A stretch of DNA of 64,000 bases from Squalus acanthias (Eukaryota): the NCBI GenBank assembly GCA_030390025.1, contig CM059432.1, positions 1,798,001 to 1,862,000 on the forward strand, in the 5' to 3' direction. Both the position numbers and the translations under genes were made by a program. Numbering within the stretch: position 1 is the stretch's first letter; each line of letters opens with the position of its first letter. Shown here in pieces: positions 3,830 to 55,805 of this stretch. The notes beneath the pieces were generated by a model. It saw nothing but the letters and a program-made list of their open reading frames with translations, had not been told where the DNA came from and ran no database searches.

Positions 3830-5172
3830 ATTGTGGGGCTGGAGGAGGTTACAGAGATAGGGAGGGTTGTAGGGGGCTGGAGGAGGTTACAGAGATAGGG
3901 AGGGTTGTAGGGCTGGAGGAGGTTACAGAGATAGGGATGGTTGTAGGGCTAGAGGAGGTTACAGAGATAGGGAGGGTTGTAGGGGCTGGAGGAGGTTACA
4001 GAGATAGGGAGGGTTGTAGGGCTGGAGGAGGTTACAGAGATAGGGAGGGTCGTAGGGCTGGAGGAGGTTACAGAGGTAGGGAGGGTTGTAGGGCTGGAGG
4101 AGGTTACAGAGATAGGGAGGGTTGTAGGGGGCTGGAGGAGGTTACAGAGATAGGGAGGGTCGTAGGGGCTGGAGGAGGTTACAGAGGTAGGGAGGGTTGT
4201 AGGGCTGGAGGAGGTTACAGAGATAAGGAGGGTCGTAGGGGCTGGAGGAGGTTACAGAGGTAGGGAGGGTTGTAGGGCTGGAGGAGGTTACAGAGATAAG
4301 GAGGGTCGTAGGGGCTGGAGGAGGTTACAGAGATAGGGAGGGTAGTCGGGCCGGAGGAGGTTACAGAGATAGGGAGGGTTAGAGGGCTGGAGGAGGTTAC
4401 AGAGATAGGGAGGGTCGTAGGGGCTGGAGGAGGTTACAGAGATAGGGAGGGTTGTAGGGCTGGAGGAGGTTACAGAGATAGGGAGGGTGGTAGGGGCTGG
4501 AGGAGGTTACAGAGATAGGGAGGGTAGTCGGGCCGGAGGAGGTTACAGAGATAGGGAGGGTCGTAGGGGCTGGAGGAGGTTACAGAGATAGGAAGGGCAG
4601 TCGGGCTGGAGGAGGTTACAGAGATAGGGAGGGTTGTAGGGCTGGAGGAGGTTACAGAGATAGGGAGGGTTGTAGGGCTGGAGGAGGTTACAGAGATAGG
4701 AAGGGCAGTCGGGCTGGAGGAGGTTACAGAGATAGGGAGGGTTGTAGGGCTGGAGGAGGTTACAGAGATAGGGAGGGTTGTAGGGCTGGAGGAGGTTACA
4801 GAGATAGGGAGGGTTGTAGGGCTGGAGGAGGTTACAGAGATAGGGAGGGTTGTAGGGCTGGAGGAGGTTACAGAGGTAGGGAGGGTCGTAGGGGCTGGAG
4901 GAGGTTACAGAGGTAGGGAGGGTTGTAGGGCTGGAGGAGGTTACAGAGGTAGGGAGGGTTGTAGGGCTGGAGGAGGTTACAGAGATAGGGAGGGTTGTAG
5001 GGGCTGGAGGAGGTTACAGAGATAGGGAGGGTCGTAGGGGCTGGAGGAGGTTACAGAGATAGGGAGGGCAGTCGGGCCGGAGGAGGTTACAGAGATAGGG
5101 AGGGTCGTAGGGGCTGGAGGAGGTTACAGAGGTAGGGAGGGTTGTAGGGCTGGAGGAGGTTACAGAGATAGG
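3830..5172 (+). repeat. 36-38 bp minisatellite derived from an L2 segment (~36 units)
   Basis: Unit GGGCTGGAGGAGGTTACAGAGATAGGGAGGGTTGTA; the same sequence occurs once in ordinary L2 copies (e.g. 32055-32095). Confidence 0.95.
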
Positions 5173-5454
5173 GAAAGTTTCATGGCCAAGTCTCCCATTG
5201 AAGAGCAACGAAAAGCTAAATCTGTAAAGAATGATTGCAGGCCAGGGAAATAGCTACCAATCATGATAGTTGGTTTTAGAGGCAGCATTTCCTTCAAGAC
5301 TGTTTGTTCTAAAGTCATGTTGGTGGCTGTGCATATCAAATATCAGCAATTGGTTGGAAGACTAAATCGATGAGAGAATATAGGATTTCTTTGAGAACAA
5401 ATTTTCATTAAGGCAGGCAGCTGAGGCTGTGATCTTTCTCTGGGCTTGCATAAG

Positions 5455-6804: not shown

Positions 6805-7697
6805 GAGACTGGCATTTCTACAGCCCCTTTCACAACCTCAGGACGTCCCGAAGCCCTTTACAGCCAATGAAGTACTTTTTGAAGTGGAGTCACTGTTGTA
6901 ATGTAGGAAACGCGGCAGCCAATTGCGCACAGCAAGCTCCCACAAACAGCAATGTGATAATGACCAGATAATCTGTTTTTTGTGATGTTGATTGAGGGAT
7001 AAACATTGGCCCAAGACACCGGGGAGAACTCTCCCTGCTCTTCTTCAACATAGTGGCCATGGGATCTTTTACATCCACCTGAGAGAGCAGACGGGGCCTC
7101 GGTTTAACGTCTCATCTGAAAGACAGCACCTCCGACAGTGCAGCACTCCCTCGGTACTGCACCTTCGACAGCACAGCGCTGACTCAGTACTGCCCCTCCG
7201 ATAGTGCGGCGCTCTCTCAGTACCGCCCGTCCGACAGTGCGGCACTCCCTCAGTACAGCCCCTCTGACAGTGCGGCGCTCCCTCAGTACTGCCCCTCCGA
7301 CAGTGCGGCGCTCCCTCAGTACTGCCCCTCCGACAGTGCAGCACTCCCTCAGTACTGCCCCTCCGACAGTGCGGCGCTCCCTCAGTACTGCCCCTCTGAC
7401 AGTGCAGCGCTCCCTCAGTACTGACCCTCCGACAGTGCGGCGCTCTCTCAGTACTGCCCCTCCGACAGTGCAGCACTCCCTCAGTACTGCCCCTCCGACA
7501 GTGCGGCGCTCCCTCAGTACTGCCCCTCCGACAGTGCGGCGCTCCCTCAGTACTGCCCCTCCGACAGTGCAGCACTCCCTCAGTACTGCAGTGGGAGGGT
7601 CAGCCTGGATTTTGTGCTCAGATCTCTGGAGTGGGACTTGAACCCACGACCTCCTGCCTCAGAGGCGAGGGCGCCGCCCACCGAGCCACGGCTGACA
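6805..7697 (-). mobile_element. Deu-domain SINE (SacSINE1-like) with internal 33-bp minisatellite
   Basis: Reverse complement of tRNA-like head (TGGCTCGGTGG...GGTTCAAGTCC), Deu core GTCTTTCAGATGAGACGTTAAACCGAGG and L2-like tail. Confidence 0.85.
7128..7588 (+). repeat. 33-bp SINE-derived minisatellite (~14 units)
   Basis: Unit CAGTACTGCCCCTCCGACAGTGCGGCGCTCCCT. Confidence 0.95.
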
Positions 7698-9364
7698 ATT
7701 TCCTGACGGTGTCGCCACCGATAAGATGGAGCGATTGGGCTTTTCTCCATCTCCTTCCATCTCCAGTCTCCTTCACCGTATCATAATACAGTTCGACATC
7801 ATCTTTGGCCATTAACCATCAACCTTTTAAACCTCACTGCAGGTTCTTTATCCGCAAAGCAATCGGTTTCTCCAACAGGCACGATAATAAGTCATTTGAC
7901 CTGTCTGGATCTTTCAGGCCCATTAAAGGTTCTCCGTGCGTGTGTGCGTGTGCGGGGCTTTTAAAAGCAGACTTCGAAAATGCCTGCAAGTTCTGCATGT
8001 TATCTTCAGCCGAGAAGAAAAGGAAAAAGCCTCTTTAAATGTGTCTGTCTGGTTCCCCGAAGGCAAAGGCAGATATCCCTGTAGTGGGCAATGGAAGGAC
8101 AGAAGCTGTAGCCTTATTAATGAATGCGGACTATTACGAGACTGCCTGACTCCTGCACGGCTCCCAGAAGCATGTACTGTACGTGACTAAAAACGCCAGA
8201 ATATTGACACAAAGCAAGCCACGCACCCCTAAGGAGAATTACTCCTTGGATATAATGTAGGCTCGTAACAGCTATTAGAGTACTAACGAAAATCCTTGGG
8301 GGATCAAGCTGACATATACTGTATTCTGCCTTTCTCCAAACATTAGGAGAATTGCCTTCTAAAGGCATTCTCAAGGACAAGATTCAAAGGACTTTCGCTC
8401 GCACTCGACATGCCTGCAGCCTTTAGCACAGTACCAATAGCCTCTCGTTTCCAATCAATAAAAAACTGGCTCTGTTGCAAGATCCGCACAACCGCCTTAT
8501 TTAGAGGATTCAATCCCATTGAAGCGGTTCAATTCAGACGGTAATTAACATCTGAATGATGACAGTGCAACAAGAAAAAGTATAAAGATAGGATTAAAAG
8601 AAAAAAAAAAGGAGAGGAAATAAAGCGAATAAAGCCGGACATGAACGCCTGCAATCCAGGCAAGACAAGACTAAAGGCGAGGGAAAAAAATACAATACAT
8701 TGCAGGGTTTCAGCTGCCATTAGTCAAATAGCCAAACACTGCATCACAGCTTCCTTGGGCGAAAGGCTATTGTCACTGGGGAATTTCTGCCTTGCATGCC
8801 AGAAATTCCTGCTTGTAAACAGGGATCAGTGGCACAGTCAGAGAGAGAAAGGAAGACACACATTTCTCCAGCGCCTTTCACCACCACCGGACGTCCCAAA
8901 GCGCTTTACAGCCAATGAAGTATTTTTGAAGTGCAGTCACTGCTGTAATGTGGGAAACGCAGCAGCTAGTTGGTGCACAGCAAACTCCCACAAATAGCAA
9001 TGTGATAATGACCAGATAATCTGCTTTAGTGATGTTGGTTGAGGGATAAATATTGACCAGGACACTGGGGAGAACTCCCCCTGCTCTTCTTCGAAATAGG
9101 GCCATAGAATCTTTTACGTCCACCTGAGAGAGCAGACGGGGCCTCGGTTTAACGTCTCATCTGACAGACGGCCCCTCCGACTGTACGGCGCTCCCTCAGT
9201 ACTGCCCCTCCGACAGTGTGGCGCTCCCTCAGTACTGCCCCTCTGACAGTGCAGCGCTCCCTCAGTACTGCCCCTCCGACAGTGCGGTGCTCCCTCAGTA
9301 CTGCCCCTCCGACAGTGCAGCGCTCCCTCAGTACTGCTCCTCCAACAGTGCAGTGCTCCCTCAG

Positions 9365-10530
9365 TTCTTTTTCTTTTTCTTAGGCAGTCCCTCAGAACCG
9401 AGGATGACTTGCTTCCACACTAAAAATGAATTCTCAGGTGACTGATGAGTCCAATGCGGGACCTACAGTCTCTGTCACAGGTGGGGCAGACGGTGGTTGA
9501 AGGGGCGGGTGGGTGGGGTGCTTGGGTTGACGTGCGCTCCTTCCGCTGTTTGCGCTTGGCTTCCGCTTACTCCCGGCGAAGAGACTCGAGGTGTTCGGCG
9601 CCTTCCCGGATGCTTCTCCTCCACTTTGTGTGGTCTTGGGCCAGGGATGTTGCACTTTTTCAAGGAGGCTTTGAGGGTGTCCTTGAAGCGTTTCCTCTGC
9701 CCACCTGGGGCTCTCCTGCCATGCCCGAGCTCTGAGTAGAGCGCTTGTTTTGGGAGTCTCGTATTGGGCATGCGGACGATGTGACCCGCCCATCGGAGTT
9801 GATCGAGCGTGGTCAAAGCTTCGATGCTGGGGGTGTTGGCCTGAGCGAGAACACTGACATTGGTGCGCCTATCCTGCCAATGGATTTGCAGGATCTTGCG
9901 GAGGCAGCGTTGGTGGTACCTCTCCAGTGCTTTGAGGTGCCTGCTGTACATGGTCCATGTCTCTGAGGCATAGAGCAGGGTGGGTATCACTGCTGCTCTG
10001 TAGACCATAGTGCCGGGTTTGAGGTCCTGGTCTTCAAACACTCTCTTCCTCAGGCGACCGAAGGCTGCACTGGCACACTGAAGGCGGTGTTGGACTTCGT
10101 CATCGACGTCTGCCCTTGTTGATAGTAGGCTCCCGAGGTATGGAAATTGGTCCACGTTGTCCAAGGCCTCGTCATGGATTTTGATAATTGGGGGGCAGTA
10201 CTGTGTGGCTGGGGCAAGTTGGTAGAGGACCTTCGTCTTACGGATGTTTAGTGTAAGGCCCAAGCTCTCGTACGCTTCGGTGAAGGTGTTGACGATGGTT
10301 TGGAGTTCGACCTCCGAGTGAGCGCAGACGTCGTCTGCATACTGTAATTTGACGACAGAGGATGGGACGACCTTGGATCTGGACTGGAGGCGACGGAGGT
10401 TGAACAGTTTCCCGTTTGTTCTGTAGATTAGCTCCACTCCAGCGGGGAGCTTACTGAGGGTGAGATGGAGCATTGCAGCCAGGAATATCGAGAAGAGCGT
10501 TGGTGCGATGACACAGCCTTGCTTGACCCT
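9365..10530 (-). mobile_element. RTE-clade LINE (BovB/RTE-like), 5'-truncated
   Basis: ORF 9475..11076 from KQGCVIAPTLFSIF through QYADD, FPYLGS, LLYASETWT, QLRWAGHIVRM, GGQRKRFKDTLK; GAA-rich 3' tail at 9365-9380. Confidence 0.9.
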
Positions 10531-11575
10531 AGTGCGGCGCTCCCTCAGTACTGCCCCTCCGACAGTGCGGCGCTCCCTCAGTACTGCCCCTCCGACAGTG
10601 CGGCACTCCCTCAGTACTGCCCCTCCGACAGTGCAGCACTCCCTCAGTACTGCCCCTCCAACAGTGCGGCGCTCCCTCAGTACCACCCCTCCGACAGTGC
10701 AGTGCTCCCTCAGTACTGCCACTCCGACAGTGCGGCGCTCCCTCAGTACTGCCCCTCCGACAGTGCGGTTCTCCCTCAGTACTGCCCCTCCGACAGTGCG
10801 GCTCTCCCTCAGTACTGCCCCTCCGACAGTGCGGCACTTCCTCAGTATCACCCCTCTGACAGTGCGGCGCTCCCTCAGTACTGCCCCTCCGACAGTGCGG
10901 CGCTCCCTCAGTACCACCCCTCCGACAGTGCGGCGCTCCCCCAGTACTGCCCCTCCGACAGTGCGGCTCTCCCTCAGTACTGCCCCTCCGACAGTGCGGC
11001 GCTCCCTCAGTACTGCCCCTCCGACAGTGCGGCACTTCCTCAGTATCACCCCTCTGACAGTGCGGCGCTCCCTCATTACTGCCCCTCCGACAGTGCGGCG
11101 CTCCCTCAGTACTGCCCCTCCGACAGTGTGGCGCTCCCTCAGTACTGCCCCTCCGACAGTGCGGCGCTCCCTCAGTACTGCCCCTCTGACAGAGCGGCGC
11201 TCCCTCAGTACTGCCCCTCCGACAGTGCGGCGCTCCCTCAGTACTGCCCCTCCGACAGAGCGGCGCTCCCTCAGTACTGCCCCTCCGACAGTGTGGCACT
11301 CCCTCAGTACTGCCCCTCCGACAGTGTGGCGCTCCCTCAGTACTGCCCCTCCGACAGTGTGGCACTCCCTCAGTACTGCCCCTCCGACAGTGCGGCGCTC
11401 CCTCAGTACTGCCCCTCTGACAGTGCAGCGCTCCCTCAGTACTGCCCCTCCGACAGTGCAGCACTCCCTCAGTACCGCCCCTCCGACAGTGCAGCACTCC
11501 CTCAGTACTGCCCCTCCGACAGTGCAGCACTCCCTCAGTACTGCCTCTCCGACAGTGTGGCGCTCCCTCAGTATT
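10531..11575 (+). repeat. 33-bp SINE-derived minisatellite (~32 units)
   Basis: Same unit as at 7128; gives 11-aa repeat ORFs in several frames. Confidence 0.95.
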
Positions 11576-12002
11576 GCACTGGAGTGTCAGCCTGGATTTT
11601 TGTTCTCAAGTCTCTGGAGTGGGATTTGAACCCTGAACTTTCTGACTCAGAGGCGAGAGCGCTACCCACTGAGCCACGGCTGACACTGAGACGTATACCG
11701 TATACATCCGCTGCCCGTCTCTGCAAGATAGTGAAGTGTTTTAACGCTCCCCCCCCCCCCCGCCCCCTCCAGCCCCAGCCCCCCTCCCGAAGACGGCTTT
11801 TTATTGTGGAGAGTTCCGTCTCTACCTGGGTTTCCATTCCTTCTCTCTCCAAGCCAGACATAACTAACGACAGCAAAAACAAAAGCATACTGCCAACCGT
11901 GAGAAACACTCAGCAGGTCTGGCAGGATCTGCGGGGAGAGAAACAGGGTTAACCTTTCAGGTCTGTGACCTTCCGTCGGAACTGGAAGAAGATAGAGATT
12001 TA

Positions 12003-12623: not shown

Positions 12624-12862
12624 GGGTGGAGAGATTAAATGACAAAAGGGATGATGGTACGAGGTGAAAAGGAGATGATAATGGGACAAGTAAAGGAACT
12701 AAAAACGGTCGCAGAGGAGCTGTAAATATCAACTGCGGAACACTACCAGCACCTGCTGTCTGAGAAAATGGGAGCAGTGATTATGATCTGAAGTTATTGA
12801 AATCAATGTTGAAGCCGGAAGTGTAAAGACCTGAAACGTTAACTCTGTTTCTCTCTGCACAG

Positions 12863-14060
12863 GAAGAATAAAGAGGCCACATACTCCTTGTAAAATAAGT
12901 GTCTAAATGGGGTAGAGGAACAAAGGGTCGGGGGATACAGAAACACATATCAGTAAAAGTAGCAATGCAGGTTAATAAGGTCATAAAAAAAAGAAAACAC
13001 TGCACTGGGGTTCATTTCTAGAGAGATAGCATTGAAAAGAGAGAAGTTATATTAAACTTGTATAGAACCTTGGTTAGGCCACACTCTTGAGTACTGTGCA
13101 CAGTTCAGGTCTCCATATTATAATAGGTACATGGAAGCACTGGAGAAGGTGCAAAAAAGATTTACAAGAATGATGCCAGAACCGAGAGGTTATAACTATC
13201 AAGAAAGACTGAACAGGCTGGAGCTCCTTTCTCAAGAAAAGAGAAGGCTGAGGGGTGACCTGATTATGAAGGGGTTCGATAGGGTAGATGTAGAGAGAAT
13301 GTTTCCACTTGTGGGCAGACCAGAACTAGGGGCCATGAATATAAGACGGTCACTAATAAATCCAATAGGGAATTTAGGAGAAACTTCTTCCCCAGAGAGT
13401 GGTGAGAATGTGGAACTCGCTACCACAGGGAGTGGTTGAGGCGAATAGTATGGATGCATTAAAGGGGAAGCTCGATAAAGGCTGGGGGGGTCTAGAACGA
13501 GGGGGTCACAGTCTCAGGATACGGGGTAGGACATTTAGGACTGAGATGAGGAGAAATTTCTTCACTCAGAGGGTGGTGAACCTGTGGAATTCTCTACCAC
13601 AGAAGGCTGTGGAGGCCAAGTCACTGAATATATTGAAGAAGGAGATCGATAGATTTCTAGACACAAAAGGAATCAAGGGGTATGGGGAGAGCGCGGGAAT
13701 ATGGTATTGAGATAGAGGATCAGCCACGATCATATTGAATGGCGGAGCAGGCTCGAAGGGCCGAATGGCCGACTCCTGCTCCTATTTTTCTATGTTTCTA
13801 ATAAATCCAACAAGGAAAGGTCTTCGACCTGAAACATTGACTCTGTTTCTCTCTCCACGGATGCTGCCTGACCTGCTGAGTTTTTCCAGCATTTTTCTGT
13901 TGTTATTAAGGAAATAACTTTACCCAGAGAGTGGTGAGAATGTGGAACTCGCTACCACAGGGAGTGGTTGAGGCGAATAGTATAGATGCATTTAAGGGGA
14001 AGCTGGATAAACACATGAGCGAGAAAGGAATAGAAGGATATGCTGATAGGGTGAGATGAA
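12863..14060 (+). mobile_element. Nested CR1 fragments (second CR1 at ~13480-13800; PLE family B fragment at 13817-13907)
   Basis: ORFs 13131..13439 and 13399..13710 with CR1 C-terminal motifs. Confidence 0.8.
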
Positions 14061-16904: not shown

Positions 16905-19471
16905 ATAGAAACATAGAAGATAGGAGCAGGAGTAGGCCATTCAGCCCCTCGAGCCTTGCTCTGCCATTCGATGAGATCATGGCTGATCATCCAAATTCAG
17001 TACCCTGTCCCTGCCTTCTCCCCATATCCCTTGATCCCTTTAGTTTTAAGAAATATATCTAACTCCTTCTTGAATATATTTAATGAATTGGCCTCTACTG
17101 CCTTCTGTGGTAGAGAATTCCACAGGTTCACCACTCTCTGGGTGAAGAAATTCCTCCTCATCTCAGTCCTAAATGGCTTACCCCTTATCCTTAGACTGTG
17201 ACCCCTGGTTCTGAACTCCCCGGCCATCGGGAACATCCTTCCTGCATCTAGTCTGTCTAGTCCTGTTAGAATTTTATAAGTTTCAATGAGATCCCCTCTC
17301 ATTCTTCTAAACTCCAGTGAGTATAAGCCCAATCGACCCAATCTCTCCTCATACGCCATTCCTGCCATCCCGGGTATCAGCCTGGTGAATCTTCGCTGCA
17401 CTCCCTCCATGGCAAGAACATCCTTCCTCAGATAAGGCGACCAAAACTGCACACAATACTCAAGGTGTGGTCTCACCAAGGCCCTGTACAACTGCAGCAA
17501 GACATCATTGTTCCTGTACTCGAACCCTTTCGCTACGAAGGCCAACATACCATTTGCCTTCTTAACCGCCTGCTGCACCTGCATGCTTACCTTCAGCGAT
17601 TGGTGCACAAGGACACCCAGGTCTCGTTGCACTTCCCCTTCTCCCAATCTATTACCATTCAGATAATAATCTGCCTTCCTGTTTTTGACACCAAAGTGGA
17701 TAACCTCGCATTTATCCACATTATATTGCATCTGCCATGCTTCTGCCCAATCACCCAACCTGTCCAAATCATACTGGAGTTTCTCGGCATCCTCCTCACG
17801 GCACACACTCCCACCCAGCTTTGTGTCTTCTGCAAACTTGGAGATATTACATCCAATTCGATCGTCCAGATCATTAATATATATTGTGAATAGCTGGGGT
17901 CCTAGGACCGATCCCTGCGGTACCCCACTAGTCACCGCCTGCCACTCGGAAAAAGACCCATTTATTCCAACTCTTTGCTTTCTGTCTGCCAGCCAGTTCT
18001 CTATCCATGTCAATACCTTGCCCCCAATCCCATGTGCCTTAACTTTACACGCTAATCTCTTATGCGGGACCTTATCGAAAGCCTTCTGAAAGTCCAAATA
18101 CACCACATCCACTGGTTCTCCCTTATCCATTTTACCAGTTACATCCTCAAAAAATAGCAGTAGATTAGTCAAGCACGATTTGCCTTTTGTAAATCCATGT
18201 TGACTTTGTCCGATCCTGTCACTGTTTTCCAAGTGCTCTGCTATTACATCTTTTATAATGGACTCTAGCATTTTCCCCACTACCGATGTCAGGCCTACTG
18301 GTCTATAATTCCCCGTTTTCTCTCTACCACCTTTTTTGAATAGTGGGGTTACATTAGCTACCCTCCAATCCATGGGTACTGTTCCAGAGTCTATAGAATT
18401 TTGGAAGATGGCCAGCAATGCATCTACTATTTCTAGGGCCACTTCCTTAAGTACCCGAGGATGTAGATTATCAGGCCCTGGGGATTTATCGGCCTTCAAT
18501 CCCATCAATTTCCCTAACACTATTTCCCTACAAATACTGATTTCTTTCAGTTCCTCCCTCTCATTAGACCCTATGTTCCCCGACATCTCTGGGAGGTTAT
18601 TTGTGTCCTCCTTTGTGAAGACAGAACCAAAGTATGTATTTAATTGGTCTGCCATTTCTTTGTTCCCCATTATAAATTCCCCTGATTCTGACTGCAAGGG
18701 ACCTACGCTTGACTTCACCAATCTTTTTCTCTTCACATATCTATAAAAGCTTTTACAGTCAGTTTTTATGTTCCTCGCAAGCTTACTCTCATACTCTATT
18801 TTCCCCCTCTTAATTAATCCCTTTGTCCTTCTTTGCTGAATCCTATTCTGCTCCCAATCCTCAGGTTTTCTGCTTTTTCTGGCCAATTTATATGTCCTTT
18901 CCTTGGATCTTATGCTATCCCTAATTTCCTTTGTTAGCCACGGTTGAGTCACCTTTTTTGTTTTATTTTTATGCCAAACTGGGATGAACAAATTCTGTAG
19001 TTCATTCATGCAGTCTTTGAATGCTTGCCATTGCTTCTCCACCGTCAACCCTTTGAGTGACATTCCCCAATCAATCCTAGCCAACTCGCGCCTCATACCA
19101 TCGTAGTTTCCTTTATTTAAATTCAGGACCCTAGTCTCTGAGTCAACTACTTCACTCTCCATCTTAATGAAGAATTTTATCATATTATGATCGCTCCTCC
19201 CCAAGGGGCCTCGCACAACAAGATTGCTAATTAATCCTTTCTCATTACATAATACCCAGTCTAAGATGGCCTGATCTCTAGTTGGTTCCTCGACATATTG
19301 GTCCAGGAAACCATCCCATATACACTCTAGGAATTCCTCCTCCACAGTATTGTTACTAATTTGGTTAGCCCAATCTATATGTAGATTAAAGTCGCCCATG
19401 ATAACTGCAGTGCTCTTATTGCACGCTTCTCTAATTTCCCTTTTAATGCCATCCCCAACCTCCGTATTGCT
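16905..19471 (-). mobile_element. CR1 LINE, 5'-truncated, with uninterrupted ORF2 (partial APE + RT + C-terminus)
   Basis: ORF 16997..19513 (838 aa): IMGDFN, SDHN, KSPGPD, NYRPVGLTS, YLDFQKAFDKV, GVPQGSVLGP, KFAEDTKL; TSD-like TTGGGAC/TTGGGAT; first ~14 aa derive from the L2 flank. Confidence 0.95.
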
Positions 19472-19516
19472 GTTGGGATGTTTTACTACATTAAAGGTGC
19501 TATATAAATACAACTT

Positions 19517-20970
19517 AGGGGTGTAGTTAAATCAGAGAAGGACTGCAACAAAATTCAGGAAAACATTAATAAACTTGCAGAATGGGCATGTAATTGGCAA
19601 ATGAACTTCAATATAGATAAGTGTGAGGAACAATAAGGAGGCCACATAATCCTTGGAACATAGGGGGTCAAACTGGGTGCCTTCGCGCCTCCCGTTAGTG
19701 CCCCAAACGGGGCTAAAATGAATTTCTCCCCCTCTGTGTCTAAATGGGGTAGAGTAACAGAGCAATCTAGGGGTACAGATACACAAGTCAGTAAAAGTAG
19801 TGACGCAGGTTAATAAGGCCATTAAAAAAACAAAGCACTGGGGGTCATTTCTAGAGAGATAGAATTGAAAAGCAGAGACGTTGTGTTAAGCCTGTATCGA
19901 ACCTTGGTTAGACCCCACTTGGAGCACCGTGAACAGTGCTGGTCTCCATATTACAAAAAGGTTGTAGAGACACTGGAGAAGGTGCAAAAAAGATTTACGA
20001 GAATGACAGCAGAGGTTCTGCTATCAGGAAAGATTGAACAGGCTGGGACTCTATTCTCTAGAAAAGAGAAGGCTGAGGGGTGACCTGATAGAGATCTTTA
20101 AGATGATGAAAGGGTTTGATAGGGTAGACCTAAAGAAGATGTTTCCACTTGCGGAGGAGACCAGAACCAGAGGCCATAAATATAAGATAGTCACTAATAA
20201 ATCCAATAGGGAATTCAGGAGAAACTTCTTTATCCAGAGAGTGGTGAGAATGTGGAACTCACTACCACAGGGAGTGGTTGAGGCGAATAGCACAGATATA
20301 CTTGCCATAGAGGGAGTGCAGCAAAGGTTCACCAGACTGATTCCTGGGATGGCAGGACTGTCGTATTAGGAGAGATTGGGTCGACTAGGCCTGTATTCAC
20401 TAGAGTTTAGAAGAATGAGAGGGGATCTCATTGAAACGTATAAAATTCTGACAGGGCTAGACAGACTGGATGCAGGGAGGATGTTTCCCCTGGCTGGGGG
20501 GTCTAGAACGAGGGGTCACAGTCTCAGGATACGGGGTAGGACATTTAGGACTGAGATGAGGAGAAATTTCTTCACTCAGAGGGTGGTGAACCTGTGGAAT
20601 TCTCTACCACAGAAGGCTGTGGAGGCCAAGTCACTGAATATATTTAAGAAGGAGATCGATAGATTTCTAGACACAAAAGGCATCAAGGGGTATGGGGAGA
20701 GAGCGGGAATATGGTTTTGAGATAGAGGATCAGCCATGATCATATTGAATGGCGGAGCAGGCTCGAAGGGCCGAATGGCCGACCCCTGCTCCTATTTTTC
20801 TATGTTTCTAAGATGCATTTAATGGGAAGCTAGATAAACACATGAGGGAGAAAGGAACAGAAGGACAGGGTGATGGGGGGAGATGGAGTAGGATGTGAGG
20901 AGGCGCGTGTGGAGCGTAAACACGGCACGGCATGGACCTGTTGGGCCGAATGGCTTGTTTCTCTGCTGTA
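19517..20970 (+). mobile_element. Nested CR1 fragments (insert ~20295-20809)
   Basis: ORFs 19865.., 20034.. and 20376.. with CR1 motifs; host resumes at AGATGCATTTAATGGGAAG. Confidence 0.8.
19663..19732. mobile_element. 70-bp deletion derivative of Harbinger-like MITE family 1
   Basis: Left end GGGGG...GCGCCTCCCGTTAG joined to right end GCCCCAAACGGGGC...GAATTTCTCCCCC of the 2185-3075 element. Confidence 0.7.
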
Positions 20971-34161: not shown

Positions 34162-35512
34162 GGGGAAGAAATTCGGTATCGCCCTGTTTGGGGCGCAATT
34201 ATCAGCCGGGCGCAAAGTTTAGCGCCTGGCGCTAATTATCGCCTCCGACTGAAAGGGTTCAATTATGAATCTTAGCTATGAGGAAAGACTGGATAGGCTG
34301 GGTCTGTTTTCCTTGGAACAGAGGAGGCTGAGGGGAGACCTTATTGAGGTGTATAAAATTATGAGGGGCATAGATAAAGTGGATAGAAAGGACCTATTTC
34401 CCTTAGCAGAGGGGTCAAAAAAAAGGGGGGAACAGATTTAAAGTAATTGGTGGAAGGTTTGGAGGGGATTTGAGGGGAAATTTCTTCACCCAGAGGGTTG
34501 TGGGGGTCTGGAACTCACTGCCTGAAAGGGTGGTAGAGGCAGGAACCCTAATCACATTTAAAAAGTACTTGGATGTGCACTTGGGATGCTCTAACCTGCA
34601 GGGCTACGGACCAAGAGCTGGGAAGTGGGATTAGGCTGGATAGCTCTTTGTTGGCTGGCGCGGACACGATGGGCCGAAATGGCCTCCTTCCGTGCTGTAA
34701 CTTTCTTTGATTCGATGACTACAAACTTGACTTTTATCGCCCCTGGAGGTGATTGGAGCGCTAAATCAGGCGCTACACACCTCTCTTAAGGCGCTAACGC
34801 CGAGGAGCGAGGCGCAACCTCAGAGCGCTGCCGAAGCTCATGTGATGTCAGTCAGCAATGGAATACAGACACACTGGCGCCGGTCAGTTCTTAAAGGGGA
34901 GGGTTGATCTTGCTCTCCATCCACAACCTGCTCACTGCAGCCTTGAATCTCGGCCTGGAGAGTCCTGTACATCAAATCTGCTGGAAAGAACAATGGAGAG
35001 AAACAGGGAAAGAGCTCAGACTGCAGCCCCCACAGTCTCTTCTAAATCGATGCAAGGAAGGTCAAATCAAAATGAACCTGCAAAGTGCTGCTCACTACCC
35101 AAAACTCCTTCACACAGCATTGAATCTCTCCAGAAGTCTCTCTCTCTCTCTCAGAATGCGTGGTGCAAAAATGTCGCCGACAAAAAAAGGAAGGAAGCGG
35201 TCGCCTTTAAATAGCGCTCCCCCAGTCCCTTCCCGACTGCAAAATGCTCCCCTCAACTTGTCGTTGCTAGTGGCAGGCGGTAAGGCAGGGGGCGCCACTC
35301 AATATCGCTCCGGGGCGATACTGGGGCGTTGTGCACTCGACTGACGTCACGATCTGCGGGCGCAGGAGATCGTGGCGGTAGTGTTTAGCGCCGCCGCAAA
35401 ATGTCTAGTTAATTTCGCGAGCGGCGCAAACATTGCCGCGCCCGGCGCGCTAGTTGCTTTGCGACCTCTTAGGGCACTAACGGGAGGCGCAAAGCAACCG
35501 AATTTCTCCCCC
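34162..35512. mobile_element. Harbinger-like MITE family 1, second copy (opposite orientation) with CR1 insertion
   Basis: TIR GGGGAAGAAATTCGG / CCGAATTTCTCCCCC; colinear reverse complement of 2185-3075. Confidence 0.8.
34252..34716 (+). mobile_element. CR1 3' fragment inserted in MITE
   Basis: Near-identical to 23669-24125; flanked by GACT duplication. Confidence 0.85.
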
Positions 35513-36686
35513 ATGATCTTCTGCGGGTGTGTGTGGTGGGGGGGGGGGGGGGGAATTTTGGAGCTGTGAGGTACAAGAATTCTGGATTCTAAAGCAATTC
35601 TGCTAGTTCAACATCCTTTTGCAATATGAAGTTTGATATAAGAGACTGCTTTAAGTGGAAATAGGTGCAGATTTAGGAGCTGGCGACAATCAATAGATCT
35701 TTTTTATTGGTCTATCACAGATTACATACAAAATGCAACTCTATCAAACCACACGCAGATCAGAATGATCCGCATTGAAGATTCCAAACCCAGCTTGGAG
35801 AATGATGGATGGGTCTGAGAGGATTCTGGTGGTTTCTGATGTGTTGCTATTGACAACATCAAACAAATGCAGTTAATTCAAGCACTGGACAAGAGATTAC
35901 ATCGAATTTACAGCACAGAAACAGGCCATTCGGCCCATGCTGGTGTTTATGCGCCACACGAGCCTCCTCCTATCCTTCTGCATCTTACCCTGTCAGCATA
36001 TCATAAGAACATAGGAATTAGGAGCAGGAGTCGGCCATTCGGCCCCTCGAGCCTGCTCCGCCATTCAATAAGATCATGGCTGATCTTCGACCTCAACTCC
36101 ACTTTCCCGCCCGATCTCCATATCCCTCGATTCCCCAAGAGTCCAAAAATCTATCGATCTCAGCCTTGAATATACTCATGATGTGGAGATGCCGGCGTTG
36201 GACTGGGGTGGACAAAAATGAGAAGTCGCACAACACCAGGTTATAGTCCAACAGATTTATTTAATTTTACAAGCTTTCGGAGCTGTCGCTCCTTCCTCAG
36301 GTAGGGTAGCAGTGAGAGAATCTCCCAGAATTCACAATTTAAACACAGACAAAATCTATTCAAATATTTCCCTACATCAAAGACACACTAAGAGCACAGC
36401 CAAGACAATGAGATGTGTCCCAGGGGGTCCAACGTGTCAAACCACCTGCTGGCTGCATATCCTGTCAATTTGTGTTGGTTTCTTGTGTTAGTCTTTTTAA
36501 AAAAAAACACCTGGGACGACCGGCCATGATGTCAAGTCACGTTCTGTATCGTGACATGAACCCGATATCGCGATTGAGGCCATCCTCATGAGTGCGGAAC
36601 TTGGCTATCAGTTTCTGCTCTATGATTTTGCGCTGTCGTGTATCCCGAAGGCTGCCTTGGAGGACGCTTACCCGCAGATCCGAGGC

Positions 36687-36851
36687 AGCCAGGGGCATTC
36701 AGCCTCGGATCTGCGGGTAAGCGTCCTCCAAGGCGGCCTTCGGGATACACGACAGCGCAAAATCATAGAGCAGAAACTGATGGCCAAGTTCCGCACTCAT
36801 GAGGATGGCCTCAATCGCGATATCGGGTTCATGTCACGATACAGAACGTGA
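36687..36851 (+). pseudogene. C-terminal fragment of the PLE GIY-YIG endonuclease domain
   Basis: SQGHSASDLRVSVLQGGLRDTRQRKIIEQKLMAKFRTHEDGLNRD fits the PLE H..D....L...R...E......T...GLN pattern. Confidence 0.8.
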
Positions 36852-37084
36852 CTTGACATCATGGCCGGTCGTCCCAGGTGTTTTTTTTTAAAAAGACTAA
36901 CACAAGAAACCAACACAAATTGACAGGATATGCAGCCAGCAGGTGGTTTGACACGTTGGACCCCCTGGGACACATCTCATTGTCTTGGCTGTGCTCTTAG
37001 TGTGTCTTTGATGTAGGGAAATATTTGAATAGATTTTGTCTGTGTTTAAATTGTGAATTCTGGGAGATTCTCTCACTGCTACCC

Positions 37085-37120
37085 TACCTGAGGAAGGAGC
37101 GACAGCTCCGAAAGCTTGTA
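37085..37120 (+). ncRNA. Minimal hammerhead ribozyme motif (family A); mirror copy on minus at 36268-36303
   Basis: TAC-CTGAGGA-A-GGAGC(GACA)GCTCC-GAAA-GC-TT-GTA. Confidence 0.75.
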
Positions 37121-38317
37121 AAATTAAATAAATCTGTTGGACTATAACCTGGTGTTGTGCGACTTCTCATTTTTGAATATACTCAACGACTGAGGATCCA
37201 CAGCCCTTTGGGGTAGAGAATTCCAAAGATTCACCACCCTCTGAGTGAAGAAATTGCTCCTCATCTCAGTCCTAAATGGCCGACCCCTTATCCTGAGACT
37301 GTGGCCCCTGGTTCTAGACACTCCAGCCAGGGGAAACATCCTGGAACTCCCTCCCTAACAGCACTGTGGGAGCACCTTCACCGCACGGACTGCAGCGGTT
37401 CAAGAAGGCGGCTCACCACCACCTTCTCAAGGGCCAACTAGGGATGGGCAATAAATGTCGGCCTTGCCAGCGACGCCCACATCCCATGAACGAATAAAAA
37501 AAAAGAAACACCCTCCCTGCATCTACCCTGTCAAGCCCTGTGAGAATTCTATACGTTTCAATGAGATCACCTCTCCTTCTTCTAAACGCTGGGGAATACA
37601 GGCCTAGTCTCCTCAATCTCTCCTCATAGGACAATCGCCCCATCCCAGGAATCAGTCTGGTGAACCTTCGTTGCCCTCCCTCTAAGGCAAGCCTATCCTT
37701 CCTTGAGTAAGGAGACCAAAACTGTCTCCTTTCTCCCTCATGTACTTATCGAGCCTCTCCTTAAATGCATCGATGCTATTCGCCTCAACCACTCCCTGTG
37801 GTAGCGAGTTCCACATTCCGTAGAACTGATTTTCAATAACTTATTGTTGTAACTCAGCCCACCAGCTTTACTATGTGGTCAATGCTGTCAAGTTACAGCA
37901 TTAAAGAAGAACTCCAGGAAGGTTCCTGATACAATCTGAGCCAGCTACCCTCCACTGAGACAGCAACAAGGGGTGGTACAATTGGTTGTCGGGCAGCCTC
38001 GGTTAGGGAGAGGAAAAATCCTGCCAAGGCTTCCGTCCTGAGGAATGCAGAAAGCCTCCTACTGGGAGTGTGCGTGCGGATGGAAGGTGAGGGCGAGGTC
38101 AAGCTTGGGTGTAATGTTCTTCACAGCTGGACAACCTTCCAAGAACATCGTTGAAATTAACATTTGAATAACAGTCACTTAGGTGAGGTACAAAAGGGTG
38201 ATCGTTACCCATGAAATCATCTCTCAAATAAGTAGAAACCTTTGAGAGAGAGACAGAGAGAGATAGAAGAGGGGAGAGATTCAAATCAAAAAAACGTAAA
38301 GGTAAACCTTTACTCAT

Positions 38318-42370: not shown

Positions 42371-42869
42371 ATCGAGGAATAGCACCTCATCTTTCGTTTA
42401 GGCACTCTACAGCCCTCTGGACTCAACATAGAGTTCTACAATTTCAGATCATAACCACGGCCCCGATCACATATATATATATTTTTATTTTATTTTTTCA
42501 TCCACCCTTTTGTTTGGCCCCTTTTTTACTTCCCTCCCTGAAGCTGGCAGCTGTCCTTCATTTTGCCAGCGCATTTCACACTTCATCCAGCCTCAACCTG
42601 TCACATTACCACCTCCTCTTGCCTTGAATATCTTTTAATGTCTCTCAATGTCTCTTAATCTCTCCTGCCTTCTATCCCACCACTGACCTTCCCCTTTGTT
42701 CTTTCATCCCCTCCCCCTTTTCCCAGCATTATACTTGCTTTAAATCTATTTCATTTCCTGCTTTTTTCCAGTTCTGATGAAAGGTCTTCGACCTGAAACG
42801 TTAACTCTGTTTCTCTCTCCACGGATGCTGCCTGACCTGCTGAGTTTTTCCAGCGTTTTCTGTTGTTAT
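42371..42869 (+). mobile_element. Penelope-like element family B, 5'-truncated
   Basis: EE*HLIFRLGTLQPSGLNIEFYNFRS* GIY-YIG end; pyrimidine-rich UTR; hammerhead; flanking duplication TAAGGCTATTCCATTG (42351-42366 / 42870-42885). Confidence 0.8.
42770..42806 (+). ncRNA. Minimal hammerhead ribozyme motif (family B)
   Basis: AGTT-CTGATGA-A-AGGTC(TTC)GACCT-GAAA-CG-TT-AACT. Confidence 0.75.
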
Positions 42870-43311
42870 TAAGGCTATTCCATTGCTCCCCTGGCCGGCC
42901 TCCCACCTTGAACCCTCCATCAACTTCAGTTCATCCATAAACTGTGCCGCCCCGTGACCTAACTCGCACCAAGTCCCGTTCACCCATCTCCCCCTGTGCT
43001 CGCTGACCTATGCCATGCTCTATGATTCAACACTCAGCAGCTGGCCAAGATTCTGCCATCCTGGTCTCCAAGTATGAAGGGCTATTAAAGTTGGGGTTGT
43101 AACCTGAGTGGACCAACCTGTGCCATCAGTTTGTTGGTCTATTACAACACTGACTCCATTTCAAAAGTACTTCATTGGCTGTGAAGCACTTTGAGGCGTC
43201 CGGTGGTGGTGAAAGGCGCTATAGAAATGCAAGTATTTCTTTCTTTTCTTTCTGTGATGTGTGTTTTCAAGTGATGAGTGCTTTTAAGACTAGTATTGTA
43301 GTAAGAGCCGT

Positions 43312-45774: not shown

Positions 45775-46290
45775 CATAGGAACAGGAGTAGACCATCCAA
45801 CCCCTCGAACCTGTTCCGCCATTCAGTTAGATCATGGCTGATCAGTATCTTAGCTCCATCCACCTGTCTTGGTTCCCTTAATACCGTTGCCTAACAAAAG
45901 TTTTGAAATTTTCAGCTTACCCCCAGCCGCCACAGCTTTTTGGGGGGAGAGAGTTCCAGATTTCCACCACCCTTTGTGTGAAGAAGTGCTTCCTGACATC
46001 ACCCCTGAACGGCCTGGCTCTAATTTTAAGGTTCAAGATCCCACGGCCACTATTTTGAAGAAGAGCAGGGGAGTTTGTCCTGGTCAACATTCATCCCTCA
46101 ACCAACATCACTGAAAGAGGTTATCTGCTCTTATTTCTCAGTGCTGTTTGTGGGAGCTTGCTGTGCACAAATTGGCTGCCGCGTTTCCTGCATTACAACA
46201 GTGACCACACTTCAAAAAGATACTTAATTGGCTGTAAAGCGCTTTGGGATGTCCTGAGGTCGTGAAAGGCGCTGTAGAAATGCGTTATCT
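45775..46290. mobile_element. CR1 3' fragment (minus, to ~46030) followed by Deu-SINE 3' half (plus)
   Basis: Match to family copies. Confidence 0.75.
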
Positions 46291-46335
46291 CTTTCTTTCT
46301 TTCCTTAGTTTCTCATGTTTGACTCGTGTGGAGCA

Positions 46336-48470
46336 TAAACACCAGCACAATACAAACACCAGCACAATATAAACACCAGCACAATACAAACACCACACAA
46401 TATAAACACCAGCACAATACAAACACCAGCAGAATACAAACACCAGCAGAATACAAACACCAGCACAATACAAACACCAGCAGAATACAAACACCAGCAC
46501 AATATAAACACCAGCACAATACAAACACCACACAATATAAACACCAGCACAATACAAACACCAGCACAATATAAACACCAGCACAATACAAACACCAGCA
46601 CAATACAAACACCACACAATATAAACACCAGCACAATATAAACACCAGCACAATACAAACACCACACAATATAAACACCAGCACAATATAAACACCAGCA
46701 CAATACAAACACCACACAATATAAACACCAGCACAATATAAACACCAGCACAATATAAACACCAGCACAATACAAACACCAGCACAATATAAACACCAGC
46801 ACAATATAAACACCAGCACAATACAAACACCAGCACAATATAAACACCAGCACAATACAAACACCAGCACAATACAAACACCACACAATACAAACACCAC
46901 ACAATATAAACACCAGCACAATATAAACACCAGCACAATACAAACACCAGCACAATATAAACACCAGCACAATATAAACACCAGCACAATACAAACACCA
47001 GCACAATATAAACACCAGCACAATATAAACACCAGCACAATACAAACACCAGCACAATATAAACACCAGCACAATACAAACACCAGCACAATATAAACAC
47101 CAGCACAATACAAACACCAGCACAATACAAACACCACACAATACAAACACCACACAATATAAACACCAGCACAATATAAACACCACACAATATAAACACC
47201 AGCACAATATAAACACCAGCACAATACAAACACCAGCACAATATAAACACCACACAATACAAACACCAGCACAATATAAACACCAGCACAATACAAACAC
47301 CAGCACAATATAAACACCAGCACAATATAAACACCACACAATACAAACACCAGCACAATACAAACACCAGCACAATACAAACACCAGCACAATACAAACA
47401 CCAGCACAATACAAACACCAGCACAATACAACACCAGCACAATATAAACACCAGCACAATACAAACACCAGCACAATACAAACACCAGCACAATACAAAC
47501 ACCAGCACAATACAACACCAGCACAATATAAACACCAGCACAATACAAACACCAGCACAATATAAACACCACACAATACAAACACCAGCACAATACAAAC
47601 ACCAGCACAATACAAACACCAGCACAATACAACACCAGCACAATATAAACACCAGCACAATACAAACACCAGCACAATACAAACACCAGCACAATACAAA
47701 CACCAGCACAATACAAACACCAGCACAATACAAACACCAGCACAATACAAACACCACACAATACAAACACCAGCACAATACAAACACCAGCACAATACAA
47801 ACACCAGCACAATACAAACACCAGCACAATACAAACACCAGCACAATACAAACACCAGCACAATACAAACACCAGCACAATACAAACACCAGCACAATAC
47901 AACACCAGCACAATACAAACACCAGCACAATACAAACACCAGCACAATACAAACACCAGCACAATACAAACACCAGCACAATACAAACACCAGCACAATA
48001 TAAACACCAGCACAATACAAACACCAGCACAATACAAACACCAGCACAATATAAACACCAGCACAATATAAACACCAGCACAATACAAACACCAGCACAA
48101 TATAAACACCAGCACAATACAAACACCAGCACAATACAAACACCAGCACAATACAAACACCAGCACAATACAAACACCAGCACAATACAAACACCAGCAC
48201 AATACAACACCAGCACAATACAAACACCAGCACAATACAAACACCACACAATACAACACCAGCACAATACAAACACCAGCACAATACAAACACCAGCACA
48301 ATATAAACACCAGCACAATATAAACACCAGCACAATACAAACACCAGCACAATACAAACACCAGCACAATATAAACACCAGCACAATACAAACACCAGCA
48401 CAATATAAACACCAGCACAATACAAACACCAGCACAATATAAACACCAGCACAATACAAACACCAGCACA
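46336..48470 (+). repeat. 17-bp satellite (~125 units) expanded inside a CR1 3' UTR
   Basis: Unit AAACACCAGCACAATAY with 16-bp variants; flanks CTCGTGTGGAGCAT / CCAGTTGGGCCGAATGGCC are contiguous in the CR1 at 49458-49510. Confidence 0.95.
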
Positions 48471-48849
48471 GCCCAGTTGGGCCGAATGGCCTGTTTCTGT
48501 GCTGCATGTAATTCTATGCCTTCCTCTTCAATTCTTGTGTTTCTAAGTTCTGTATTTATCCACAGCATTCTGAAACTTGAAGTAGTCTCTTTTTTAAAAA
48601 AAAGCTTCCATTTATTCTGCAGCCTTACAATATCCGTTTTAAAAATATCCTGTTATTGATCTGCAGTCCTTTCTGCCAGATTCTCTTTCCACCTCAGCTC
48701 ACCTCAGCTCACTCCTAATCTTTCTAAAATCTAACCTATTCTAAACTGGCGCCCTCGTTTCAGTATTAAATTTTTCCCCTTTCCATTTGGACATTAAACC
48801 GTAACATATTACAACCACTGCTCCCAAGGTGCTAACCCACATTGAACTA

Positions 48850-51896: not shown

Positions 51897-53560
51897 GTGT
51901 CAGCCGTGGCTCAGTGGGCAGCACCCTCGCCTCTGAGTTCTAGAAGGTTGTGGGTTCAAGTCCCACCCCAGAGACTTGAGGACAAAATCCAGGCTGACAC
52001 TCCCAGTGCAGTACTGAGGGAGCGCCGCACTGTCGGAGGGGCAGTACTGAGGGAGCGTCGCACTGTCGGAGGGGCAGTACTGAGGGAGCGCTGCACTGTC
52101 GGAGGGGCAGTACTGAGGGAGCGTCGCACTGTCGGAGGGGCAGTACTGAGGGAGCGTCGCACTGTCGGAGGGGCAGTACTGAGGGAGCGCCGCACTGTCG
52201 GAGGGGCAGTACTGAGGGAGCGCCGCACTGGTGGAGGGGCAGTACTGAGGGAGCCTCCACTGCACTGTCGGAGGGGCAGTACTGAGCGAGCGCTGCACTG
52301 TCGGAGGGGCAGTACTGAGGGAGCGCTGCACTGTCGGAGGGGCAGTACTGAGGGAGCGCCGCACTGTCGGAGGGGCAGTACTGAGGGAGCCTCCACTGCA
52401 CTGTCGGAGGGTCAGTACTGAGGGAGCCTCCACTGCACTGTCGGTGGGGCAGTATTGAGGAAGTGCTGCACTGTTGGAGGTGCCGTTGGTCGGATGAGAC
52501 ATTAAACCGAGGCCCCGTCTGCTCTCTCAGGTGGACGAAAACGATCCCATGGGCACTATTTCGAAGAAGAGCAGGGGAGAGTTCTTTCCCAGTGTCCAGG
52601 CCAATATTTATCCCTCAATCAACATCACTTAATAAAAAAAACAGAGGATCTGGTCATTATCACGCTGCTATCTGTGGGAGCTTGCTGTGTGCGAATTGGC
52701 TGCCGCGTTTCCTACATTACTACACTCCAAAAAAAATACTTCAGGGACAGAGGGACCTGGGAGTTAATGTGCATAGGTCCCTGAAGGTGGCAGGACATAT
52801 TGAGAGAGTTAGCAAAGCATATGGGATCTTGGGCTTCATAAATAGAGGTATTGAGTACAAAAGTAGAGAAGTTATGCTGAACCTTTATAAAGCGCTGGTT
52901 AGATGACAACTGGAGTATTGCGTCCAGTCTGGTCACCACACTTTAGGAAGGATGTGAAGGCCCTTGAGAGGGTGCAGAGGAGATTTACCAGAATGGTTCC
53001 GGGGATGGGGGATCTTAGCTACAAGGACAGGTTGGAGAAGCTGGTTTTAATTAGAGCAAAGGAGGTTGAGGGGTGATGTGATAGAGGTGTTCAAAATCAT
53101 GAGGGGTCTGGACAGAGTAGATAGAGAGTTGTACAAGATTATGACGGGTTTGGATAGGCTAGACGGGGGAAGGCTGTTCCCACTAGTTGATGGTACAAGG
53201 ACTGGGGGGACACAGATTTAAGGTTTTGGGCAAGAGATACAGGGGGGATGTGAGGAAAAACTTTTTTACGCAGCGAGTGGCGAGGACCTGGAACTCGCTG
53301 CCGATGGAAGTGGTGGAAGCGGAGACACTCAATGTTTTCAAGGGGAGACTGGAGAGGCACTTGAGGGAAATAAACTTGCAGGGCTACGGGGATAGAGCGG
53401 GAGGAATGGGACTGACTGGATTGCTCTACAGAGAGCCGGCACGGACTCGATGGGCCAAATGGCCTCCTTCTGTGCCGTTATGACTCTGTGGCTGTAAAGC
53501 GCTTTGGGACGTCTGGTGGTTGTGAAAGGCGCGATAGAAATGTAAGGCCTTTCTTCTTTC
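51897..53560 (+). mobile_element. Deu-SINE with 33-bp minisatellite (52008-52475) and CR1 insertion (~52742-53490)
   Basis: Head at 51897; repeat units; core at 52480; tail resumes at ~53490. Confidence 0.8.
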
Positions 53561-54941: not shown

Positions 54942-55805
54942 GTGTCAGCCGTGGTAGCACTCTCACCTCTAGAGTCAGAAGGTCGTGGGTTCAAGTCCCA
55001 CTCCAGAGACTTGAGCACAAAAATCCAGGCTAACACTCCAGTGCAGTGCTGAGGGAGCACCACACTGTCGGAGGTGCCGTCTTTCGGATGAGTTGCTAAA
55101 CCAAAGCCCCGTCTGCTCTCTCAGGTGGACGTAAATGATCCCAAGGCACTATTCCGAAGAAGAGCAGGGGAGTTCTCCCCGGTGTCCTGGCCGATATTTA
55201 TCCCTCAATCAACATAACTTAAACAGATATAACAACAGAAAATGCTGGAAAAACTCAGCAGGCCAGGCAGCATCCGTGCAGAGAGAAACAGGGTTAACGT
55301 TTCAGATCGAAGACCTTTCGTCAGAACTCACGTCAACCACGTTTAATGCCCTTTATCTCTGTGAGAAAGGGCTTTAAACGTAGTAAAACATCCCAAGACG
55401 CTTCACAGGAGCGATTATCAAACAGCCTCAGCTGCCTGGGCCCTAAGCTCAGAGAGAAAGGGCTTTAAACGTGGTTGACGTGAGTTCTGACGAAAGCTCT
55501 TCGACCTGAAACGTTAACTCTGTTTCTCTCTCCACGGATGCTGCCTGGCCTGCTGAGTTTTTCCAGCGTTTTCTGTTGTTATTTCGGATTTCCAGCATCC
55601 GCAGTATTTTGCTATTGTAACATAAACAGATTATCTGGCCATTATCACATTGCTGTTTGTGGGAGCTTGCTGTGCGCAAATTGGCTGCCGTGTTTCCTAC
55701 ATTACAACAGTGACTACACTTCAAAAAGTGCTTCATTGGCTGTAAAGCGCTTTGGGACGTCTGGTGGTCGTGAAAGGTGCTGTAGAAATGCAAGTCTTTC
55801 TTTCA
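54942..55805 (+). mobile_element. Deu-SINE interrupted by an inverted PLE family B insertion
   Basis: SINE broken at TAAACAGAT, which is duplicated (55220-55228 / 55623-55631). Confidence 0.8.
55229..55620. mobile_element. PLE family B inverted pseudo-LTR with two hammerhead motifs (55292-55329 minus, 55482-55520 plus)
   Basis: Arms 55229-~55361 / ~55448-55582; ~38-nt extension; GAGTT-CTGACGA...GAAA-CG-TT-AACTC. Confidence 0.75.

Follow-up and report, generated by a model that had tools for sequence, protein, structure and literature searches.

The 64,000-nucleotide stretch of the spiny dogfish (Squalus acanthias) genome analyzed here (contig CM059432.1, positions 1,798,001 to 1,862,000; referred to as the window and numbered from its first letter) carries at 36179-37175 a large inverted repeat that is almost certainly a head-to-head insertion of a Penelope-like element (PLE) into a LINE. 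The locus is made up of the following features, from left to right:

36010-36178, minus strand: 3' part of the host LINE, left of the insertion, matched by tblastn to residues 818-841 of the LINE ORF2 of the window (16997-19531), with 10 other matches in the window.
36166-36178: left copy of the target-site duplication (TSD), 13 bp, 77% A+T; the last 2 nt coincide with the end of the element (microhomology).
36179-36212, minus strand: PLE "tail" of 34 nt (36 including the 2-nt microhomology), at the left end only; the same tail lies on one end of the copy at 1947-2169.
36213-36686, minus strand: left arm, a tail-bearing 5'-truncated PLE copy with ORF end (36537-36686), 3' UTR, hammerhead motif and a derived Gly-to-Ser change at a CpG (36653).
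36268-36303, minus strand: minimal type I hammerhead motif by the descriptor given in PMC4209133, predicted cut after 36271.
36685-36686: 2-nt microhomology at the head-to-head junction; in one X6 contig the native upstream letters stop directly before 36685.
36687-36701, plus strand: 15-nt "spacer" that belongs to the right, tail-less copy and encodes SQGHS in its frame, as judged by translation and by the tblastn match of P0002 residues 590-642 across 36684-36842.
36702-37175, plus strand: right arm, a tail-less 5'-truncated PLE copy with ORF up to the stop (36849-36851), 3' UTR, hammerhead motif and a derived Ile-to-Met change (36782).
37085-37120, plus strand: minimal type I hammerhead motif; cleavage is predicted after 37117, at a distance of 55-58 nt from the tail-less end.
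37173-37185: right copy of the TSD; its first 3 nt also fit the right arm.
37173-37345, minus strand: host LINE, right of the insertion, matched by tblastn to ORF2 residues 765-820 with 82% identity.

The two arms are 474 nt each and agree at 472 of 474 positions (99.6%), with mismatches at 36606/36782 and 36653/36735. An earlier note on this DNA had described a perfect palindrome of about 1 kb, with 473-bp arms free of mismatches. The near-identical inverted arms are real, but on alignment they are one nucleotide longer than described and differ twice, so the palindrome is not perfect. Its 15-nt spacer and its one-sided extension of 36 nt were both recovered, 34 nt of the latter falling outside the TSD and 2 nt being shared with the TSD end. 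The 36-nt tail and the TSD of 12-13 bp had been reported in that form because the TSD ends fit both the element end (2 nt) and the last 3 nt of the right arm. The 34 nt between the left TSD and the left arm have no mirror image. Both PLE copies have their 3' ends facing outward, one reaching the tail and the other ending 34-36 nt short of it, which agrees with the inverted pseudo-LTR layout with a one-sided tail that had been proposed. Within an arm, about 230 nt of UTR follow the stop before the hammerhead motif is reached. In both copies of this family in the window (family A), the tail ends on a sense-strand ATG (36177-36180 and 1947-1950), which in a tandem arrangement could serve to start the following ORF.

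Read in the plus-strand frame, the spacer and the right arm give a 56-aa peptide, which matched 15 proteins among 23 candidates, all named matches being from sharks. The best match, P0002, is a Heptranchias perlo protein of 643 aa whose C-terminus is 91% identical to the 53 residues of the ORF end present at the locus. It carries an RVT_1 domain, a CX4CxxC linker and the motif VYLIRCxxxC..WYIG (GIY-YIG with two inserted cysteines) with His residues downstream; another homologue, P0005, scores above the Pfam GIY-YIG cut-off. The claim that the arms carry the end of a GIY-YIG ORF is borne out by this homology, and the PLE match whose absence would have spoken against the earlier reading was found. 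The 56-aa piece itself gave no GIY-YIG match in Pfam, no RT was found at the locus, no relative of P0002 was found in the PDB, and the search of metagenome and viral contigs returned no related DNA loci. The combination of an RT with a C-terminal GIY-YIG domain and CCHH motif, by which endonuclease-bearing (EN+) PLEs are recognized, is seen in the homologues, only the last 53 residues being present at the locus. A CX2-5CxxC linker precedes the endonuclease in all 7 longer homologues (in one with a changed last Cys); the linker region is absent from the locus. This linker is described as marking Neptune and Nematis as against Penelope and Poseidon (Craig 2021, PMC8557442), and its presence in the homologues points to a Neptune/Nematis-type clade. 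Three shark gene models at NCBI (P0003, P0009 and P0013) fuse the PLE endonuclease to XRCC5, a PYRIN domain and FAM210B, by exonisation or annotation error.

Besides the protein traits, the locus shows a further set of EN+ PLE features: an inverted pseudo-LTR with 5' truncation (direct or inverted ones being characteristic), a tail at one end that falls in the range of 30-40 bp (34-36 nt here, 37 nt at 1947-1983), and an AT-rich TSD. The earlier note had given the TSD as 12-13 bp, and 13 bp was confirmed; a match of this length was reached in 2 of 5000 random position pairs of the same spacing when tandem arrays were skipped (1058 draws skipped), and in 69 of 5000 when they were not, a figure inflated by the arrays. 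Together with the next base, the TSD forms a 14-bp quasi-palindrome (2 mismatches to its own reverse complement), and the target lies inside an imperfect inverted repeat of the LINE (36154-36178 plus 37186-37197). LINE-paralogue contigs continue unbroken across the site (loose ends at 36178; X1, X3 and X6). That the insertion sits inside a CR1 had also been stated; the flank matches to ORF2 show a LINE host, which we take to be CR1-like. The ORF2 stretch at 16997-19531 is open over 844 aa and holds endonuclease and RT Pfam domains. Among 40 of the 109 window ORFs of at least 110 aa that were scanned for host genes, 3 matched LINE domains and none a host family, in a scan that short exons would escape, so that the insertion may lie in an intron.

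A palindrome of this kind could be a fold-back artefact of sequencing or assembly, and among the 32 contig pieces listed (137094 more unlisted) none bridges the centre of the locus or either of its junctions. However, the mirror symmetry is confined to the element and stops at its ends, where a single LINE, split in two and bordered by a 13-bp TSD, takes over. Only one end has a tail, native codons make up the spacer, the arms have each acquired a different derived change, and the same plan recurs in two older palindromes of the window. We therefore regard an artefact as scarcely credible.

These other palindromes, and the fragments related to one of them, are:

1947-2169 (within 1935-2178): second family-A palindrome with a 37-nt tail on the left, arms identical at 88/92 positions and a 12-bp AT-rich TSD.
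55229-55617 (within 55215-55631): palindrome of family B, a second hammerhead-bearing family, with arms identical at 128/136 positions, a tail-like stretch of about 35 nt extra on the right and a 14-bp TSD with one mismatch.
42770-42875, 13815-13911, 11903-11990 and 12828-12860: single fragments of family B, with an intact hammerhead core at 42774.

The second family-A palindrome has a loop of 1 nt, located 8 nt upstream of its hammerhead core, and the 2 nt outside its own TSD at its start are the same 2 nt as the left microhomology of the locus. At the centre of the family-B palindrome, about 70 nt of another repeat lie between two 19-bp direct repeats, perhaps as a later insertion. Other repeats in the window include two inverted copies of a 590-nt sequence (2401-2990 and 34717-35306; 93% alike, 31.7 kb apart) and minisatellite arrays at 3760-5251, 7005-11582, 46278-48600 and 51942-52463, whose units measure 36-37, 33 and 17 nt, the 33-nt one recurring at several sites in both orientations.

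Public contigs of the same organism contain at least 15 joints (89 more unlisted) that involve the element. From the LINE into an element end lead 11 of the 15, one at the tail end (36178), nine at 36207-36219 and one at 36239, and 14 X1 contigs with unlike flanks end at 36213. Three joints fuse an antisense arm to a sense copy at 36685-36690. With sides of 20-28 letters and 94% likeness, the listed joints are read as other copies of the family and not as the locus itself. The family reads show both kinds of end and so lend support to two start sites. One contig, found in X1 and X3 at a depth of about 80, joins 36176 to 36213, which suggests another, tail-less insertion at the same LINE position. 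Summed over contigs, the depth in the arm exceeds that of the unique flank by a factor of 10^4-10^5, which is not a copy number. Run X5, from a second sample, gave no cover on the unique flank in the 55% of the run examined, and run X6, which we guess to be RNA, gave none there either.

The two mismatches between the arms were polarized with the homologous proteins, of which 13 of 15 were aligned after two host-gene chimeras had been set aside. All 13 have Gly at the codon of 36735/36653, and 12 of the 13 have Ile at that of 36782/36606; the Ser of the left arm (a CpG transition) and the Met of the right arm are therefore the derived states. Contig variants could not polarize the mismatches, because neither 36606 nor 36653 has a row among them and no transition is listed anywhere. 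A-to-I editing was considered as the source of both mismatches, each being A versus G in the sense strand, and was rejected; the G at 36735 is ancestral (Gly 13/13). In the epaulette shark, the mutation rate is given as 7e-10 per base per generation (95% interval 1.4-14.1e-10). At that rate, 2 changes in 474 bp correspond to 3.0 million generations (0.36-10.9), or 1.5 (0.04-8.4) without the CpG, for arms that were identical at birth, with a rate borrowed from another species and with the reservation that hairpins may mutate faster and that the differences may be older than the insertion. It is fair to state that the copy is younger than the other two palindromes in the window. The earlier note had gone further, to a very recent insertion or arm-to-arm gene conversion, and to a family A that may be active. 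Two mismatches and slow shark mutation lend no support to a very recent insertion, one derived change in each arm speaks against recent conversion of a whole arm, and nothing shows activity, which had been deduced from the identity of the arms.

Each hammerhead motif combines the core boxes with an extra A that follows position 9; helix I has 3 bp, helix II has 5 bp and begins with a G-C pair, and a palindromic 4-nt stand-in replaces helix III. All 4 family-A motifs share the minimal hammerhead traits (core, extra base 9/10.1, G10.1-C11.1, palindromic 15.2-16.2, helices I and II), and helix I shows a compensatory change, a U-A versus a C-G pair, between the locus and the copy at 1947-2169. In family B, the 3 motifs show A-U at 10.1-11.1. 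In their core boxes, extra base, G10.1-C11.1 pair, palindromic 15.2-16.2 and lack of helix III, the motifs of the locus resemble the minimal hammerheads of metazoan PLEs as described in PMC4209133, from which they differ in a helix I of only 3 bp and a helix II of 5 bp. The same source reports opposite-strand hammerhead pairs 100-700 bp apart in Schistosoma, whereas the cores start about 790 bp apart here. Rfam gave no hammerhead at the gathering score in the whole window, nor at E<=10 in 36100-37300; below the gathering score, only miRNA-hairpin matches were obtained, as any long stem gives. When the motif was folded freely, helix II alone was formed (z -0.97).

There is indeed a motif in each arm, but to speak of two hammerheads, as had been done, overstates the count: on either strand there is a single sense motif, and its own antisense comes before it. 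Monomeric minimal hammerheads are reported to be inactive (Cervera and de la Pena 2014, PMC4209133), and a second motif on the same RNA is absent here, the one sense motif per strand being paired in the predicted fold of the whole insertion. The two motifs cannot dimerise in cis, because they are on opposite strands. With a single sense motif per strand that would be transcribed after its antisense, the hammerheads are probably silent. A non-LTR retrozyme, described as tandem head-to-tail units each with a type I hammerhead (bioRxiv 10.64898/2026.07.22.740005), was considered and rejected; the units here are inverted, not tandem.

The ends and the centre of the insertion bear on how it was made. 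By its reading frame, the spacer is native sense coding sequence and not foreign DNA, and the native upstream letters of the X6 contig agree with the PVGEHFSS protein motif of the homologues. Both outer ends are element 3' ends with target microhomology (2 nt left, 3 nt right), the polarity that results when first strands are primed on each of the two target strands. As the spacer is the sense of the tail-less copy, the strand whose start lacks the tail contains the loop as antisense. One simple fold-back was rejected as an explanation: a tail-less strand holds no template for a tail, and had the tailed strand folded back, the spacer would have the opposite orientation. With a single fold-back excluded by spacer sense and tail side, priming at both target ends is the likely course of events. 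In vitro, the PLE protein of Anolis is reported to cut and extend both strands, to prefer AT-rich DNA and to begin reverse transcription at two sites that bracket the tail (Frangieh 2024, PMC11167929); that work concerns a Poseidon element, which belongs to another clade than the PLE of the locus.

We hypothesize that the GIY-YIG domain would cut both target strands, 13 bp apart, and that reverse transcription would be primed by both target 3' ends, from the tail start site on the top strand and from the internal start site on the bottom strand. At the centre, the tail-less cDNA would fold back on itself, with the 2-nt microhomology as stem and 15 nt as loop. Pairing of the sense strand thus made with the tail-primed cDNA would follow, and repair would seal the insertion. 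If both target ends did prime, a fold-back at the centre is on balance the better account of the junction. The short loops (15 nt here; 1 nt at 2076) favour it over independent truncation; against it stand the weak 2-bp stem and the absence of the folded-back 3' end from the 12 lowest predicted DNA structures.

In L1 twin priming, both target ends prime and a central microhomology is involved, and a different part of the RNA is inverted; at the present locus, the same 474 nt are present twice. Twin priming, with both target ends primed on two RNAs or two pLTR copies, could have given two independent cDNAs that were joined by the central 2-nt microhomology, without any fold-back. The end anatomy would be the same, the Anolis PLE protein is predicted to be a dimer (PMC11167929), and head-to-head joints in reads from other loci are offset by about 60 nt (36636-36690) and about 280 nt (36424-36685), which, on joint sides of only 20-28 letters, fits independent cDNAs as well. 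The mismatches could in that case predate the insertion. However, in each of the two family-A palindromes of the window the copies break off at nearly the same point, with differences of 15 and 1 nt. In addition, at 36366 both arms carry a base that is at odds with 89-100% of the depth in the four runs, and so derive from one source. Independent cDNAs are therefore an unlikely origin, though one to be taken seriously.

Self-priming has been proposed for head-to-head junction palindromes with a tail (Arkhipova 2013, PMC3846280; Craig 2021, PMC8557442): a hairpin is formed from an antisense template, cut asymmetrically by the endonuclease and then integrated. Short loops fit this model as well. 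In its simple form it predicts an antisense loop on the tail-bearing strand, the reverse of what the locus shows, and the tail has later been tied to two RT start sites (PMC11167929), so that we consider it improbable. More improbable still is that the palindrome was copied whole, as a non-autonomous element, from a palindromic master. The tail would be nearly the sole part outside the long duplex of a read-through RNA, and hence could be primed. On the other hand, no second copy with the same centre was found in the window, the other family-A palindrome differs in centre and length, and the RT would have to unwind 474 bp. Taken as a whole, the account that we prefer, somewhat to the probable side, combines two-ended priming with a fold-back at the centre and sees the insertion as a dead, non-coding product of an abundant endonuclease-bearing Neptune/Nematis-type PLE, with nothing usable encoded today.

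The layout itself is already published for PLEs: Craig 2021 (PMC8557442) describes an inverted 5'-truncated copy and a 30-40-bp tail at one end, and Arkhipova 2013 (PMC3846280) head-to-head junctions, tail and TSD. The insertion resembles these complex EN+ PLE insertions in its inverted head-to-head copies, one-end tail, short TSD, junction palindrome and retroelement target. It differs from them in that no full ORF lies between the repeats, two stumps of about 0.5 kb forming one 474-bp hairpin, and its TSD is 13 bp as compared with 8-10 bp in the PLEs of Adineta. Poseidon_Ac of Anolis, as presented in PMC11167929, likewise has a hammerhead upstream of two 3' end points that bracket the tail, an AT-rich target and use of both strands; Poseidon is, however, described there without the linker zinc finger that the homologues of the present family possess, and the Poseidon_Ac hammerhead overlaps the ORF start. 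What is new, as read from frame and junction, is that the spacer is the in-frame sense of the tail-less copy, joined by a 2-nt microhomology. Further literature considered in this analysis is PMC10587355 and PMC7999016.

The predicted RNA fold of the whole insertion has -973 kcal/mol on the plus strand (968 of 997 nt paired) and -959 kcal/mol on the minus strand; both mismatches are G-U pairs on plus-strand RNA and unpaired on the minus. This agrees with the earlier expectation that about 470 bp of dsRNA would form in a read-through transcript; the insertion would give dsRNA only if transcribed. The further suggestions of the earlier note, an endo-siRNA or ADAR substrate and the extrusion of a cruciform, are conjectural. 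Such a transcript would make the antisense arm first and bury the lone sense hammerhead. As DNA, the palindrome is a candidate hairpin or fragile site, and a lagging-strand hairpin is plausible by analogy. According to a review, a spacer lowers the risk, yet fork stalling and breakage still occur in yeast and primate cells at inverted Alu pairs separated by 12 bp. An inverted repeat of 474 bp with 99.6% identity and a 15-nt spacer may be likened to such Alu pairs, and its apparent persistence bears on the tolerance of palindromes in sharks.

As one of many dead PLE stumps, the locus matters little in itself. It is, however, a clean specimen, in which every base of the TSD, of both ends and of the centre is legible, and these constrain the mechanism of transposition. 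We tentatively propose, as a possibility that we hold at less than even, that spacer polarity is a record of PLE integration: it would always be the tail-less, internally primed cDNA that folds back, the tail being derived from a second priming on the opposite target strand. The loop polarity has been determined for one insertion. This argument was not found in the literature searched, and reviews beyond that search may hold it. If it is true, shark palindromes, of which there are several per 64 kb, would allow counting at scale and could settle how the inverted repeats of PLEs are formed.
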